Assembly (NCBI GenBank): GCA_022340905.1
Contig: JAJDNB010000095.1
Span: 10,967-74,966 of the forward strand
From: Deltaproteobacteria bacterium
GTDB taxonomy: Bacteria > Desulfobacterota > Syntrophobacteria > BM002
Length of the DNA stretch: 64,000 nucleotides
Direction: 5' to 3'
Shown here: positions 31,690-36,041 of the stretch, piece by piece
How the letters are laid out: every line of letters starts with the position of its first letter
Numbering within the stretch: the first letter of the stretch is position 1
Translations under genes and position numbers: made by a program
The notes under the pieces: model-generated
The model's input: only the letters and a program-made list of their open reading frames with translations
What the model was told of the DNA's origin: nothing
Databases searched by the model: none

Positions 31690-32727
31690 GTGGATGAAAG
31701 GGCATCATGGTTCAGGGGTTGGCTGGAGACCGCTGTTGGCAGGGTAGCACGAATTTCAACTCATATGGGCTTCAGGGACAGACTGGGAGGTTGCAGGGTG
31801 AGATGGGGAATCCGGCGGATGCATTACAGTGTTCCAGCCGGACTCTATGCTATCGGGCAGCCCACACATGAATCTCCGGTTTTGGTTACTGCAAACTACA
31901 AGCTAAGCTTCGACTTACTGAGACGTGAGCTTTCGGGAAAGGACCTCTGGTTGTTGGTCCTGGAGACCTTTGGTATCAATGTCTGGTGTGCTGCCGGAAA
32001 GGGGACCTTTGGCACTGCTGAACTCGTGAGCCGCATCCAGAAAGTAGAGTTGGATAAAGTTGTCAACCACAGGACCATAGTCCTGCCTCAACTGGGAGCT
32101 AGCGGTGTGGCCGCACACCGAGTAAGAAAGGCCACCGGATTTAGGGTTAAGTACGGTCCTATTAGGGCCTGCGATTTACCCTTGTTTTTAAAGAATGGTC
32201 TGAAAACCAGTGAGGAAAACAGGCGGATAAAGTTTACCTTTAGAGATCGATTGGTTTTAACTCCCATGGAGTTAGTGGGTGCCTGGAAAATTTCATTGGT
32301 GGTCCTGCTTCTCCTCTTTATTTTGGGAGGATTGAGCGAACAAGAATTTAGTCTGCAAGGGGTGTTGTCCCGCAGCTTATCTCCTGGATTGATATATCTT
32401 GGCGCCCTCCTCGTGGGGTCCTTTATTACCCCTATTCTTCTGCCCTGGATTCCTGGGAGAGCCTTTTCCCTGAAGGGAGCCCAACTTGGTTTGCTGTGGG
32501 CCTTTGCAGCCAGTATCACTTTGGCTTCTGCCTGGAGTGTGGGCAGTATCATTGCCCTCTTTCTTATTGTTCCTGCTATAGCCGCATATTTTGCTATGAA
32601 CTTCACCGGGTGCAGTACCTTTACTTCACTCTCCGGTGTCCAAAAAGAGATGCGGATTGCAGTGCCAGTGATTATCTTATCTATAGTCACAGGCGGAGTA
32701 ACACTGGTGCTGGGCAAGTTTTTGTGA
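31690..32727 (+). CDS. hgcA: Mercury methylation corrinoid protein HgcA (corrinoid-binding domain plus C-terminal 5-TM domain)
   Basis: Contains the diagnostic cap-helix motif N(V/I)WCA(A/G)GK as GINVWCAAGKGTFG. Also RVRWGIRRMHYSVPAGLYAIG..PVLVTANYKLSFD. Hydrophobic C-terminal half. GTG start at 31690. Confidence 0.85.
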   Translation: MDERASWFRGWLETAVGRVARISTHMGFRDRLGGCRVRWGIRRMHYSVPAGLYAIGQPTHESPVLVTANYKLSFDLLRRELSGKDLWLLVLETFGINVWCAAGKGTFGTAELVSRIQKVELDKVVNHRTIVLPQLGASGVAAHRVRKATGFRVKYGPIRACDLPLFLKNGLKTSEENRRIKFTFRDRLVLTPMELVGAWKISLVVLLLLFILGGLSEQEFSLQGVLSRSLSPGLIYLGALLVGSFITPILLPWIPGRAFSLKGAQLGLLWAFAASITLASAWSVGSIIALFLIVPAIAAYFAMNFTGCSTFTSLSGVQKEMRIAVPVIILSIVTGGVTLVLGKFL

Positions 32728-32735
32728 GAAACGAG

Positions 32736-33023
32736 ATGGGTTTGCAATATTTAAGAGATGTTGTCACCCTGGAGCTTGATCGTGACAAGTGTACCCTCTG
32801 TGGGATGTGTACTAACGTGTGCGTTCACGGGGTTTTAGCAGTCGATGACAATGGTATTCACATTCTGGAAAGAGATGCTTGTATGGAGTGTGGCGCTTGC
32901 GCCATGAATTGTCCGGCTGAGGCAGTGACGGTTCGGGCTGGAGTCGGGTGTGCCTGGGCCATTTTTCGGGACTGGTTCAGGAAACAGCCGACAGCCAACA
33001 ACAGGCAGCAGGTAGTTATTTAG
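32736..33023 (+). CDS. hgcB: HgcB, 2x[4Fe-4S] ferredoxin partner of HgcA
   Basis: 95 aa from MGLQYLRDVVTLELDRDKC. CTLCGMCTNVC and CMECGACAMNCP cluster motifs plus the conserved GVGCA Cys. Starts 9 nt after the hgcA stop. Lacks the C-terminal vicinal Cys pair described for many HgcB. Confidence 0.75.
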   Translation: MGLQYLRDVVTLELDRDKCTLCGMCTNVCVHGVLAVDDNGIHILERDACMECGACAMNCPAEAVTVRAGVGCAWAIFRDWFRKQPTANNRQQVVI

Positions 33024-33275
33024 GGAATTAGGGAGTCAGAAAATTAGGTCAAAGAGGTCGGAGGTCGGAAGTCAGAGATCAGATGACAGAGGACAGAAGA
33101 CAGCAGGTATGGAACTAGTTAGAAAATTGGAGAATTAGGTAATTGATTTAACAATTAAGTCATTAATGGTTTACCTCTTCCGTTTACTAATCCACTAATT
33201 CTCTAATTGACTAATTAACTAACTGACCAATTAACGCTGTGCGCTTAGCGCTGGGCGTTTTAAAAAGGAGAAGAC

Positions 33276-33482
33276 ATGGAAACAACAAAACTGTCGATAC
33301 CGAATATCTCTTGCGGCCACTGTGTAATGACTATTAAGAGAGAGCTTGGGGAGGTCGCAGGTGTTAGCAAAGTAGAAGGAGATCCAGCGGGCAAAAATAT
33401 TACTTTGGAGTGGGACACGCCGGCTACTCTAAAAAAGATCAAAGAGGTGCTCGCAGAGATAAACTACCCGGCAGTAGAGTAA
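33276..33482 (+). CDS. copZ: Heavy-metal-associated (HMA) copper chaperone
   Basis: 68 aa, ISCGHCV metal-binding motif in a ferredoxin-like fold. Confidence 0.85.
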   Translation: METTKLSIPNISCGHCVMTIKRELGEVAGVSKVEGDPAGKNITLEWDTPATLKKIKEVLAEINYPAVE

Positions 33483-33587
33483 TCTCGCCCGGCGTACAGG
33501 GCAAAGCGTATGGCCTAGGTGGCAAAGATTCTAATGACCCTATGAAGCCATGCGCTCTGCGCTTAGCGTCGAAGGTAGTGACTGATA

Positions 33588-36041
33588 ATGGCTAGTAAAG
33601 ATGTAACATTACCCATAATCGGAATGACTTGCGCCAATTGCGCTCTGAGCATTGAAAGGAATCTGAAGAAGCTTCAGGGGGTGGAGGAGACAAATGTCAA
33701 TTTCGCCTCGGAACAGGCATCGGTATCTTTTGATCCTGAACTGATTAACATTGATGAACTCATAAAAAAGGTTGAAGACGTTGGTTATGGCATTGCCACT
33801 GCCAAGGTTGAACTTCCCATAACCGGAATGACTTGCGCCAATTGCGCTCTGAGCATTGAAAGGACCTTGAACAAAAAGGTTCCAGGGGTGGTGAAGGCCT
33901 CGGTCAATTTTGCCAGCGAGAGAGCCGCCGTCCAATACCTTCCCAATCTGACAAGTGTCGAAGAGATGATTGCCGCCATTAGGCAGGCGGGATATGACGC
34001 TATTCCTCCTGATGAGACCGGAGAGGCCGAAGACATTGAACAGAGAGCGCGGCGGGCCGAAATTGCCGATCAAACCAGAAAGTTTATTGTCGGTATTCTC
34101 TTCACCCTACCTTTATTTCTTTGGAGCATGGGGAGAGATTTCGGACTTTTGGGTGGTTGGAGCCATGCTCTTTGGGTGAACTGGGCGTTTTGGGCCCTGG
34201 CGACGCCCGTCCAGTTCTATACAGGCTGGGACTACTACACCGGCGGTTGGAAGAGCCTGAAGAACCGCAGCGCCAACATGGACGTGTTGGTAGCTATGGG
34301 GTCTTCGGTTGCCTATTTCTATTCAGTTGCCGTTATCCTGCACCCTTCCCTAGGTAGCCACGTCTATTTCGAGACTTCAGCGGTGATCATCACTTTAATA
34401 AAACTGGGTAAAATGCTGGAGGCGCGAGCAAAGGGGAGGACGGGGAACGCCATTCGCAAGCTCATGGGCTTGCGCCCGAAAACTGCTACCATAATAAGAG
34501 ACGGCAAGGAAGTGGAAGTTTCTCTCAAAGAGGTAAAGGTGAGTGACGTGGTAGTCGTCCGTCCCGGTGAAAAGATCCCAGTTGACGGTATAGTTTTGGA
34601 AGGGAACTCGGCAGTAGATGAGTCCATGTTAACCGGTGAACCTATTCCAGTGGATAAGAGCACCGGAGACACGGTTGTCGGTGCTACCATAAACTCGGAG
34701 GGTCTGCTCAAGTTTCGGGCAACTAGGGTGGGAAAGGATACCGCCCTGGCTCAGATTATAAAGCTGGTCCAGGACGCCCAGGGGAGCAAAGCCCCAATTC
34801 AAGCTCTCGCCGATCGAGTGGCAGCTGTTTTCGTTCCCGGTGTTATCGGAATTGCCACGATTACCTTTATCCTCTGGTGGAGCCTCGGCGGTGAGTTCGT
34901 TCCTGCCATGATCAGGCTGGTGGCGGTTCTCATCATTGCCTGCCCTTGTGCTCTCGGTCTGGCAACGCCTACCGCCATTATGGCTGGAACCGGTAAAGGA
35001 GCAGAAAAAGGTATCCTGTTCAAAGACAGTGAAGCCCTCGAAAAAGCCACCAAGCTGGAAACTATTGTCCTCGACAAGACTGGAACGCTTACCCTCGGCA
35101 AACCAGCGGTGGCTGATGTGATTGCCTTCAACACTTCATCTCCAGTTCAGCATAAAAAGGAACTGTTGCGAATTGCCGCATCCGTTGAAAAGGGTTCCGA
35201 ACATCCAGTGGGCCGGGCAATACTCAAGGAGGCGGAAAAGCAAGGCTTGGAGCTGTTAGAGCCTCAAGAATTTAAAGCCTCCGGTGGTCTGGGGGTTCAA
35301 GCCAGGATAAATGGGCAGTTGGTTTACGTTGGCAAGCCGGGATGGTTCAAGGAAATGGGGCTAGATATGACGGGTGGGAACGAATATGTCCACACCCTTC
35401 AACGGCAAGGGAAAACCTTGATGGCAGTAGTGGTGGAAGAAGAACTGGCAGGGCTGATTGCAGTTGCCGATTCTCTTAAAGCTGAGTCAAAAGAGGCTGT
35501 TGCAGAGCTTCGCAGTGAAGGCCTGAAAGTGGTCATGCTCACGGGAGATAATATTGAGACTGCTCGATCCATTGGAGAAGAAGTACAGGTGGATGAAATT
35601 ATCGCTGAAGTTCGCCCTGAAGAAAAATCAATGAAGATCAAAGAACTCCAGGATAGAGGTCAAATGGTTGGCATGGTAGGCGACGGCATCAATGACGCCC
35701 CTGCCCTCGCCCAGGCAGATGTTGGTATTGCCATTGGTACCGGTACTGATGTGGCCATTGAGACCGCTGATGTCATTTTAGCCAGTGGGAACCTTGCAGG
35801 AATATCGCGGTCAATCCAGTTGAGTCGAGCCACCATGAGAACGGTGAAAGAAAACCTCTTCTGGGCCTTTATTTACAACATGATACTCATACCTGTCGCT
35901 GCAGGTGTGCTCTACCCCCTCGAATTCTTACCTTCCCTTCTCAGGCAGCTCCATCCCATCCTAGCAGCCCTGGCTATGGCATTGAGCAGTATAACTGTTG
36001 TCTCAAATAGTTTGCGGCTTTATCGTGCCAAAATCAAGTGA
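33588..36041 (+). CDS. copA: Cu(I)-translocating P1B-type ATPase with two N-terminal HMA domains
   Basis: Two [16 protein letters not shown] domains, TM6 CPC, DKTGTLT, SEHPV, TM7 YN, TM8 MALSS. 817 aa. Confidence 0.9.

Follow-up and report, generated by a model that had tools for sequence, protein, structure and literature searches.

We found that the region spanning hgcA to copA is best read, with a probability of roughly 60%, as two known modules, the mercury-methylation pair hgcAB and the copper chaperone/exporter pair copZA, that one bacterial lineage maintains side by side. The genes themselves are known, and what is new is a clade-specific arrangement; a search of the accessible literature found no description of copZ/copA adjacency to hgcAB. 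In the window, by which we mean the whole stretch of 64,000 nucleotides analysed, hgcA, hgcB, copZ and copA are consecutive and all on the plus strand, and base composition is uniform over the whole locus, which contains the following features:

29180-31291, plus strand: hybrid PAS histidine kinase/response regulator (Pfam PAS, HisKA, HATPase_c, Response_reg)
31570-32727, plus strand: hgcA, predicted full-length selenoprotein form, 385 aa with Sec30 (NF040863 and upstream open frame)
31657-31659, plus strand: in-frame UGA, predicted Sec residue 30, motif E-P-C-U-G-P (conserved position, coding on both sides)
31673-31684, plus strand: short invariant hairpin UCCC-CGGU-GGGG, candidate SECIS core, 14 nt 3' of the UGA
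31978-32001, plus strand: cap-helix motif NVWCAAGK (read from the sequence; columns invariant in an alignment of 16 relatives)
32736-33023, plus strand: hgcB, 95-aa 2x[4Fe-4S] ferredoxin, Cys73-equivalent = Cys72 in GVGC (NF040864)
33024-33275: hgcB-copZ spacer, 252 nt, with repeats and imperfect inverted repeats
33241-33251: palindrome GCGCT-T-AGCGC, candidate cis element, 35 nt before the ATG of copZ
33276-33482, plus strand: copZ-like metallochaperone of 68 aa with one HMA domain and the metal site S-C-G-H-C (PF00403, 50.7 bits)
33559-33569: second copy of the palindrome element, GCGCTTAGCGT, 29 nt before the ATG of copA (repeat family D7)
33588-36041, plus strand: copA, P-type ATPase of the P1B-1 (Cu(I)/Ag(I)) export type, two HMA domains at the N terminus (TIGR01511, TIGR01525, motifs)

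By sequence identity, HgcA and HgcB are a bona fide mercury-methylating gene pair, presumably active. The original prediction had placed HgcA, on the strength of NVWCAAGK, at 31690-32727; this frame scores 452 bits against the NCBIfam equivalog NF040863 (HgcA_corrinoid; cut-off 275) over profile positions 1-324 of 325, contains a complete transmembrane domain and has as its nearest named homologues the HgcA of Syntrophobacteria/Syntrophobacterales MAGs. The identity thus stands, but the start probably does not. The frame is open 5' of 31690 up to an ATG at 31570, crossing a single in-frame TGA, and since the N-terminal extension is kept in all clade relatives with a readable 5' region, the gene most likely spans 31570-32727, with the UGA read through as selenocysteine. 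The TGA is at the identical position in 22 of 22 distinct clade sequences, with conserved coding sequence on either side; other lineages have CC or CU at this site, and a PCUGP selenoprotein form of HgcA has been published (Haft & Gwadz, bioRxiv 10.1101/2022.07.06.499078). The cap-helix cysteine codon (31987-31989) accordingly encodes Cys140 of the full-length protein or Cys100 of the short form. The bases of the candidate SECIS hairpin double as codons for a conserved P-G-G of HgcA, and RNAalifold on 19 sequences gave it no covariation support (4 pairs, 0 compensatory changes). Both the Sec-containing extension and the absence of C-terminal cysteines from HgcB had previously been overlooked.

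HgcB normally has a C-terminal cysteine tail, which is believed to pass mercury on to the enzyme. The window HgcB scores 115 bits against NF040864 (HgcB_ferredoxin; cut-off 99), covering profile positions 1-84 of 93 only, so its proposed identity as a ferredoxin with the GVGCA cysteine is borne out, although it starts 8 nt, not 9 nt, past the hgcA stop. All eight cluster cysteines and Cys72 are kept; in the first cluster motif, Val stands where 79 of 79 diverse HgcB have Pro. Beyond Cys72 there is no cysteine at all, the tail being AWAIFRDWFRKQPTANNRQQVVI with a TAG stop. Such cysteine-free tails occur in 1 of 79 diverse HgcB versus 5 of 25 in the copZ-linked clade (Fisher p = 0.003), where another 13 of 25 have a single tail cysteine. 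An independent metagenome contig (L169), 99.4% identical over 4.5 kb, carries the identical tail and spacer, so the loss is not an assembly error.

The order hgcA-hgcB-copZ-copA is kept within a monophyletic clade whose HgcA identities range from 97% to 60%, with hgcA-hgcB-copZ(-copA) in every member that has sufficient flank, and a neighbour-joining tree groups the synteny-bearing HgcA in one clade. Comparison with related genomes, as originally suggested, therefore shows that the adjacency is not accidental; the arrangement is ancestral to a Syntrophobacteria-like clade, and the group inheriting it consists of sediment bacteria. In the 60-62% subclade (eight contigs), the hgcB-copZ-copA gaps shrink to 20 and 13 nt, and on the evidence of these gaps hgcAB-copZ-copA is probably one transcript. 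In the 70-97% subclade, the hybrid kinase is a conserved upstream neighbour of hgcA (L081, L082, L084, L085, L089, L091, L101, L105, L106).

The copper pair was predicted as a CopZ chaperone and a CPC-type Cu(I)-ATPase with two HMA domains on the same strand, and PF00403, TIGR01511 and the P1B-1 transmembrane signatures agree. CopA scores 624 bits against TIGR01511 (Cu-translocating P-type ATPase; cut-off 397) and 657 bits against TIGR01525 (cut-off 346), and its motifs (CPC452, DKTGT496, N-x6-YN-x4-P at 756, M-x2-SS-x5-N at 797 and two CANC) constitute a signature of the Cu(I)/Ag(I) type rather than the Zn/Cd/Hg type. The best NCBIfam matches of CopZ are copper-chaperone models, every one under its cut-off, and the MerP model ranks still lower (34 bits; cut-off 92.55). 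Judged by gene neighbourhood, copZ-copA is an autonomous pair, independent of hgcAB, because, of 53 loci with the window-type copZ orthogroup, 51 have copA after it, whereas no more than 20 of 62 have hgcAB in front. Where copZA stands without hgcAB, the pair has a TTGACA-type promoter of its own, and in two such loci (L134, L155) a relic of about 46 nt of the hgcB 3' end lies upstream of copZA with the rest of hgcAB gone, a pattern indicating that one lineage deleted hgcAB and retained copZA.

The spacer between the two pairs contains purine-rich 7-nt arrays (33054-33103) and 8/16-nt arrays (33186-33235). The low-complexity repeats noted earlier are thus real, but similar arrays are common in intergenic regions throughout the window and are not specific to this spacer. 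No terminator-like or promoter-like site turned up when the spacer was scanned, and it can be aligned with relatives over its last ~50 nt only. The palindrome is present at the same position in L081, L084, L089-L092, L095, L169 and L170, with a variant form in L085, L105 and L112; the copy upstream of copA also occurs in L087, L089, L090 and L092.

Under the two-module reading, HgcA would most likely be a selenoprotein whose N-terminal arm carries Cys...Cys-Sec. If it works like the characterised enzyme, the cob(I)alamin of HgcA would be methylated while under the cap-helix cysteine, the two [4Fe-4S] clusters of HgcB would supply low-potential electrons, and the methyl group would then pass to thiol- or selenol-bound Hg(II). 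Lacking the Hg(II)-fetching C-terminal cysteines, HgcB would either support lower activity or depend on another ligand, perhaps the Cys-Sec arm of HgcA, its own Cys72, small thiols or a chaperone. From the family signatures, CopZ would bind Cu(I) at CGHC and pass it to CopA for export, and copZA would operate independently of hgcAB, from which the repeat-filled spacer parts it in the window. Of the shared metal-handling locus that was originally proposed, conserved adjacency is upheld and shared function is not, given copZA kept without hgcAB, a Cu(I)-type CopA and this spacer. What speaks against mere side-by-side modules is that a linkage persisting down to 60% HgcA identity, and operon-tight in one subclade, exceeds usual neutral synteny.

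Functional coupling is a plausible, if tentative, alternative. Conceivably, the CopZ-like protein works together with HgcAB, binding Hg(II), or some other soft metal, at CGHC and either delivering it to the Cys-Sec arm of HgcA or to Cys72 of HgcB, or removing the product, with CopA as outlet or copper-side safeguard and the chaperone partly replacing the eroded HgcB tail. The HMA folds of MerP and NmerA bind Hg(II). A role of the chaperone in HgcAB function is suggested by the tight linkage in the 60-62% subclade, by copZ beside hgcAB without copA (in L082/L083, where copZ remains, and independently in a distant HgcA clade, L033, L069 and L074, with a copZ-hgcA-hgcB unit, gaps of 34-47 nt and its own promoter), and by HgcB::ArsD fusions in 16 protein clusters elsewhere, in which a metallochaperone (the arsenic chaperone) is attached directly to HgcB; the chaperone, then, may take part. 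The cysteine-poor HgcB tails of the copZ-linked clade would fit this, as would the description of the Hg(II) source for HgcB as 'unknown' (PMC7305189) and the enhancement of ND132 Hg methylation by nanomolar Cu (Lu et al. 2018, as cited in PMC10896945). However, the copZ orthogroup is tied far more to copA than to hgcAB and outlives hgcAB deletion, an HMA gene adjoins just 3 of 80 diverse hgcAB loci, and the L033-type clade combines copZ with five HgcB tail cysteines, so copZ presence and tail loss are not cleanly correlated. The 252-nt spacer, the conserved element right before copZ and again before copA, and the copper-chaperone character of the CGHC site and of the NCBIfam ranking also argue against coupling.

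It is improbable, in our estimate, that the window hgcAB is instead compromised and heading to loss, with a recent tail swap causing poor or no methylation in an hgcAB-positive organism. The closest relative (L170), with HgcA 97% identical and the HgcB body nearly identical, still ends in ...QCDCS, which would imply recent replacement of the cysteine-bearing tail; the hgcB 3' end is similar to a spacer repeat further downstream (family D3, 76%), hgcAB was deleted altogether in a related lineage, and in ND132 the HgcB C94A/C95A double mutation abolished 95% of the activity (PMC7305189). Yet both frames are intact and retain the catalytic residues (the cap-helix cysteine, all eight cluster cysteines and Cys72), the tail-less allele recurs in a second sample, and the window shares its 'K-K/Q-x-P-T/A' tail type, an old allele, with L095, L093, L087, L143 and L096. 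Moreover, four further cysteine-free tails within the clade suggest that this state is tolerated, and the Cys-Sec arm of HgcA could compensate. A reading of HgcA as a paralogue that does not methylate mercury (fused HgcAB-like or CFeSP-type), beside a generic ferredoxin, is close to refuted: the protein's sole Pfam match is a CdhD/CFeSP-type domain and its PDB sequence relatives are CFeSP only (E ~1e-8), but, as against its NF040863 score, it falls below cut-off for the fused paralogue (198 bits; 285) and CFeSP gamma (67 bits; 306) models, and it has NVWCAAGK, the full transmembrane domain, the PCUGP arm and a separate adjoining HgcB scoring above the cut-off of the HgcB equivalog model.

Among known systems, the closest are the hgcAB units of Pseudodesulfovibrio mercurii ND132 and Geobacter sulfurreducens PCA, a corrinoid protein and a 2x[4Fe-4S] ferredoxin for SAM-dependent Hg methylation. 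The window pair is likewise a two-gene unit passing the same equivalog models, with the same cap-helix cysteine, transmembrane domain, HgcB cluster motifs and Cys73-equivalent, and it shares the N-terminal PCUGP arm with DND132_1056 and GSU1440 (bioRxiv 10.1101/2022.07.06.499078). By contrast, its HgcB has no counterpart of ND132 Cys94/Cys95 and no Pro in the first cluster motif, a PAS hybrid kinase rather than an ArsR-like regulator lies upstream, and copZ-copA lies downstream. As in Bacillus subtilis copZA and the Enterococcus hirae cop operon, an x-S-C-x-H-C HMA chaperone directly precedes a CPC-type P1B-1 ATPase with N-terminal HMA; unlike there, no CsoR-, CopY- or CueR-type regulator is seen near the window pair, CopZ is under the CopZ-specific NCBIfam cut-offs, and in the clade the pair sits behind hgcAB, in one subclade in the same apparent operon. 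The Mer hand-off (MerP, NmerA and the MerA C-terminal Cys pair), with a CxxC HMA-fold protein beside an enzyme acting on thiol-bound Hg(II), is the analogy on which the coupling hypothesis is based, and the MerA tail has been compared with HgcB (PMC7305189); here, however, the locus has no mer genes, CopZ is under the MerP cut-off and the ATPase paired with it belongs to the Cu(I) type. ArsD-ArsA, in which a chaperone supplies a soft-metal(loid) ATPase, is a parallel in architecture only, with HgcB::ArsD fusions elsewhere mirroring CopZ beside HgcB and no ArsD in the window. Finally, hgcAB is co-localised with arsR, acr3, arsC and arsD in other genomes (McDaniel et al. 2020, PMC7438021; Gionfriddo et al., bioRxiv 10.1101/2022.10.17.512643), and the present locus resembles these in that hgcAB adjoins soft-metal(loid) resistance genes with which it may be co-transcribed, the neighbours here being, instead of ars genes, a copper chaperone and its exporter.

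The reading that we prefer, with a probability of about 60%, is that the hgcAB neighbourhood combines two known modules, a genuine hgcAB pair and a Cu(I) efflux pair of canonical type, whose adjacency has been inherited within one clade, part of which co-transcribes them, with copZ-copA forming an independent unit that in the window itself is probably separately controlled. All four ORFs of the original prediction are present as described:

31570-32727, forward strand: hgcA, probable extended form (short form 31690-32727)
32736-33023, forward strand: hgcB
33276-33482, forward strand: copZ
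33588-36041, forward strand: copA

The 345-amino-acid ORF at 31690-32727 matches the HgcA equivalog model NF040863 with 452.4 bits (cut-off 275), the alignment spanning positions 1-324 of the 325-position profile, and falls under the cut-offs of both the HgcAB-like fusion model NF043039 (198 bits against 285) and the gamma-subunit model NF003195 of CFeSP, the corrinoid paralogue family of HgcA (67 bits against 306); the only Pfam match is a CdhD-type corrinoid domain. Paralogues were discriminated by HMM score, and these scores practically exclude the possibility that the protein is a paralogue rather than HgcA. The predicted cap-helix motif NVWCAAGK was located at 31978-32001, in columns that are invariant across 16 relatives; the cysteine of this motif, N(V/I)WCA(A/G)GK, is presumably the cobalt ligand. 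The C-terminal multi-helix transmembrane domain that had been proposed is likewise supported by the profile match up to position 324 of 325 and by a hydrophobic C-terminal half, including PWIPGRAFSLKG, that is conserved in the alignment of relatives. In a PDB sequence search with HgcA, CFeSP large subunits (E ~1e-8) were the sole relatives, so that HgcA itself has no sequence relative that could be detected in the PDB copy searched. The named closest homologues belong to Syntrophobacteria/Syntrophobacterales MAGs, and the closest ones overall are uncultured.

The GTG at 31690, originally taken as the start of hgcA, is not the limit of the frame, which is open to an ATG at 31570 if the TGA at 31657-31659 is read through; hgcA is thus probably longer than 31690-32727 and probably encodes a selenoprotein. 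The extended translation, of 385 amino acids, begins MEQKTIQESEFLTSDCSTSAVEAKQVEPC-U-GPKTVPGGEV and continues into the old start. The TGA occupies the identical place in 22 of the 22 distinct sequences read from the window's Syntrophobacteria-like HgcA clade, flanked by E-x-C and G/A/S-P, with an in-frame ATG at least 69 nt upstream in those clade sequences whose 5' end falls inside the contig, and many HgcA loci from diverse GTDB genomes (hereinafter, the diverse set) carry CU or CC in the equivalent stretch. A PCUGP arm of HgcA, with extended lengths of 363-400 amino acids, has been described by Haft & Gwadz, and the EPCUGP motif around the TGA of the window is the same feature. A short hairpin after the UGA is invariant, without covariation, and so covariation is uninformative as SECIS support; Rfam searches gave nothing at E <= 1 over 27000-40500, nor at gathering thresholds across the whole window. 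The window holds no tRNA-Sec or sel genes (it has no tRNA genes at all), and Sec insertion at the UGA of hgcA is an inference. An extra cysteine, kept in most clade members, precedes the Cys-Sec pair by about 14 residues (TSDC...EPCU; arm 31570-31656), and together they provide three potential soft-metal ligands in the HgcA arm.

The copper-efflux assignment of the second pair stands. CopZ consists of a single HMA domain (PF00403, 50.7 bits) with the metal site S-C-G-H-C; it reaches none of the curated copper-chaperone models (TIGR00003, 46.3 against 62; CopP, 44.2 against 112; CopZ_Bs, 38.6 against 91), and the MerP model gives 34.2 bits, under its cut-off of 92.55, with the copper models ranking first. 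Genes of a mer operon (MerR, MerT/P, MerA) are absent among the genes at 27461-38341. CopA has two HMA domains and 623.9 bits with TIGR01511 (cut-off 397), and falls under the cut-offs of the E. coli CopA equivalog NF007952 (711 against 1316) and of ZntA (397 against 1240). Its CPC, DKTGT, N-x6-YN-x4-P and M-x2-SS-x5-N signatures are those that, by the established classification of P1B-ATPases, we take to denote Cu(I)/Ag(I) transport (P1B-1), not Zn/Cd/Pb/Hg.

The order hgcA-hgcB-copZ was found in every clade contig with enough flank, and nearly all of these run on into copA. HgcA identity across the syntenic contigs extends from 97% down to 60%, and a neighbour-joining tree of 104 HgcA sequences places all syntenic members in one clade; the relatives from the GTDB scan are at most 55% identical among the matches listed, and the clade context was taken from metagenome contigs. 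The hgcB-copZ and copZ-copA gaps are 252 and 105 nt in the window, compared with 20 and 13 nt in eight contigs of the subclade with 60-62% HgcA identity to the window, a packing that appears operon-like. In the 70-97% subclade, the upstream octahaem cytochrome and PAS hybrid kinase are also conserved. Downstream of copA (36221-41864), a block of tRNA-Thr_ED, alpha-beta hydrolase, Usp and amidohydrolase genes is inverted in the window relative to the clade contigs, and inserted genes (APH-family kinase, ROK kinase and PilZ) separate copA from the inverted block.

Several other features of the window were recorded. The region at 16087-28858, directly upstream of the hgcAB neighbourhood, encodes a NarGHI-type respiratory nitrate reductase, an MFS transporter, FmdE and a PAS protein, along with a NapC/NirT tetrahaem and an octahaem cytochrome, the cytochromes being syntenic with hgcAB in relatives. 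A 200-nt unit is present in about 2.2 tandem copies at 7674-8167 (73-74% matches), and there are two Prismane/CODH-family genes in divergent orientation and a methylmalonyl-CoA mutase/B12-binding/MeaB cluster (11636-15684 and 43849-47035), the latter being consistent with a propionate-metabolising Syntrophobacteria-like organism.

Whether copZ is tied to copA or to hgcAB was addressed by searching JGI metagenomes with an alignment of CopZ-like proteins and examining the best 80 loci. Of the 53 that extend 900 nt or more beyond copZ, 51 have copA directly after it; of the 62 that extend 700 nt or more ahead of copZ, only 20 have hgcB/hgcA before it. The loci readable on both sides comprise 13 with hgcAB as well as copA, 27 with copA alone and one with neither. 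The copZ-copA loci that lack hgcAB carry an evident putative promoter, TTGACA-N16/17-TAnnnT, about 55 nt before copZ. Moreover, in two of the loci (L134, 4954-5000, and L155, same position), copZ-copA is preceded by about 46 nt that share homology with the extreme 3' end of hgcB and still spell ...ACS, with the rest of hgcAB absent, the footprint of an hgcAB deletion that left copZ-copA in place. The linkage to copA, the infrequent linkage to hgcAB, the separate promoter and the deletion footprint together indicate that copZ-copA is a tight, autonomous unit, and its adjacency to hgcAB is, by this comparison of loci, clade-specific inheritance.

The repeats that had been noticed between the two gene pairs are real. 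They were rejected as a locus-specific element, since tandem arrays of a similar kind, with a 7-8 nt period, recur in numerous intergenic stretches across the window (22578-22608, 28965-29002, 33054-33103, 33186-33235, 38378-38407, 40426-40456, 41399-41420, 47037-47064, 55262-55291 and 56271-56314); such arrays seem to be a general trait of this organism's genome. A promoter/terminator scan detected none in the hgcB-copZ spacer, with counts at chance level. Within the window's subclade, the sole alignable parts of the spacer are the ribosome-binding site and a palindrome, GCGCT-T-AGCGC, which has two copies:

33241-33251: GCGCT-T-AGCGC, 35 nt before the copZ ATG, position conserved in the closest relatives
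33559-33569: second copy of GCGCT-T-AGCGC, 29 nt before the copA ATG, position conserved in the closest relatives

This palindrome may be a candidate operator or merely another of the short repeat arrays of the genome; no regulator candidate for it is known nearby.

Set beside the autonomy of copZ-copA, the alternative in which HgcAB receives metal from the CopZ-like protein or passes metal on to it is rather unlikely, although a functional link is kept alive by loci outside the window. In three of the 80 loci of the diverse set, a member of the copZ orthogroup (63-67% identical) lies immediately upstream of hgcA:

L033:7594-9480, copZ-hgcA locus
L069:1860-3702, copZ-hgcA locus
L074:1-1685, copZ-hgcA locus

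The HgcA proteins of these loci share 77-88% identity among themselves but just 52% with that of the window, and their clade is far from the window's in the HgcA tree, so that they represent a second, independent juxtaposition of copZ and hgcAB. In the two loci with flanks long enough to read (L033 and L069), a TTGACA promoter precedes copZ, 34-47 nt separate copZ from the Sec-form hgcA start, copA is lacking and nuoABCD comes next, and the two loci have unrelated genes further upstream. In two other loci (L082 and L083), copZ is still behind hgcAB and copA is absent. In a Chloroflexota MAG (L037, 2776-3402), HgcB runs in frame into an ArsD domain (PF06953, E = 1.4e-27), which we take to be an arsenic metallochaperone. 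A database search yielded 16 clusters of full-length HgcB::ArsD proteins (P0121-P0136; 232-291 amino acids, 100% query coverage), and on a 161-kb contig (L171) such a gene, at 6001-6840, directly follows hgcA, and ArsR-like and SBF/Acr3-type transporter genes lie upstream of hgcA at a distance of a few genes. The copZ-hgcAB units and these fusions make a metallochaperone beside or fused to HgcB a recurring theme, in agreement with published links between hgcAB and ars genes and with the effect, cited in PMC10896945, of nanomolar Cu in raising methylation in the reference methylator ND132 (Pseudodesulfovibrio mercurii).

The HgcB tail has been proposed to take Hg(II) 'from an unknown source' (PMC7305189; see also PMC11588087), and HgcAB might recruit a dedicated soft-metal chaperone in several lineages, such a chaperone being the source from which Hg(II), or whatever metal(loid) is the true native substrate, reaches the Cys-Sec arm of HgcA and the cysteines of HgcB. 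In the window's clade and in the distant clade without copA, the chaperone would be a CopZ-like HMA protein, its gene following hgcB in the former (with operon-tight spacing in the sister subclade) and preceding hgcA in the latter; in Chloroflexota-type loci it would be the ArsD domain to which HgcB is fused. We regard this proposal as doubtful; if it is true, HgcB tails in the copZ-linked clade, the window included, would have eroded to one or zero cysteines because the chaperone delivers the metal.

The HgcB ORF of 95 amino acids, at 32736-33023, passes NF040864 (115 bits, cut-off 99), and the gap between it and hgcA measures 8 nt, not 9. The cluster cysteines C19/22/25/29 and C49/52/55/59 are present, as is Cys72, the Cys73 equivalent, in GVGC. 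The first CxxCxxCxxxC motif ends in CV (32790-32825, residues 19-30), compared with CP in 79 of 79 HgcB of the diverse set; V, G or A replaces the proline of this [4Fe-4S] motif in the whole clade. After Cys72, the protein ends AWAIFRDWFRKQPTANNRQQVVI-TAG, with no tail cysteine, and the NF040864 match reaches only profile position 84 of 93. In the diverse set, 78 of 79 HgcB have at least one tail cysteine, usually 2-5, and among 25 distinct clade tails five have none, 13 have one and seven have two, so that cysteine-free tails are commoner in the clade (Fisher p = 0.003). Rescue by frameshift or read-through was rejected, there being no TGC/TGT in any frame near the 3' end and the stop being TAG; in relatives that end in TGA, read-through gives nothing sensible. 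An assembly error was ruled out by an independent JGI metagenome contig (L169) that is 99.4% identical over 4,456 nt, with the same tail and spacer. The tail is of an alternative 'K-K/Q-x-P-T/A' type common to L095, L093, L087, L143 and L096, and its change is recent, as a contig (L170) with 97% identical HgcA and a near-identical HgcB body ends ...KRHSDSGKGNIQCDCS.

All four gene families and the selenocysteine arm are already known. What is new is the conserved hgcAB-copZ-copA arrangement, operonic in the sister subclade, and the naturally tail-less HgcB alleles, along with, outside the window, the copZ-hgcAB units and the HgcB::ArsD fusions; the literature searched yielded no report of copZ/copA adjacency to hgcAB or of an HgcB-ArsD fusion. 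These findings touch on two central questions, how Hg(II) is delivered to HgcAB and what the real purpose of the enzyme is. In an uncultured Syntrophobacteria-like clade that is abundant in sediment metagenomes, a copper chaperone and pump are co-inherited with hgcAB, and this locus, the copZ-hgcAB units and the HgcB::ArsD fusions offer concrete candidate chaperones, testable with the co-expressed and purified HgcAB that has been published (PMC11588087), so that the question of what delivers the metal to HgcAB becomes one of specific experiments. If the coupling is not real, the locus amounts to two known modules, unremarkable as a pair, whose order is specific to the lineage.

The presence of hgcAB is used worldwide as a marker for methylmercury production, and natural HgcB variants without the tail that mutagenesis calls needed imply that some hgcAB-positive populations may methylate poorly. 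That the hgcAB of the window is functionally impaired through loss of the tail is, nevertheless, improbable in our estimate; a role of CopZ as a partner of HgcAB would also account for the cysteine-poor tails of the clade. In ND132, the C94A/C95A double mutant of HgcB loses 95% of methylation, and at least one C-terminal tail cysteine is required for full activity (PMC7305189). The HgcB of the window thus differs from that of ND132 in lacking the tail cysteines that the latter needs for full activity.
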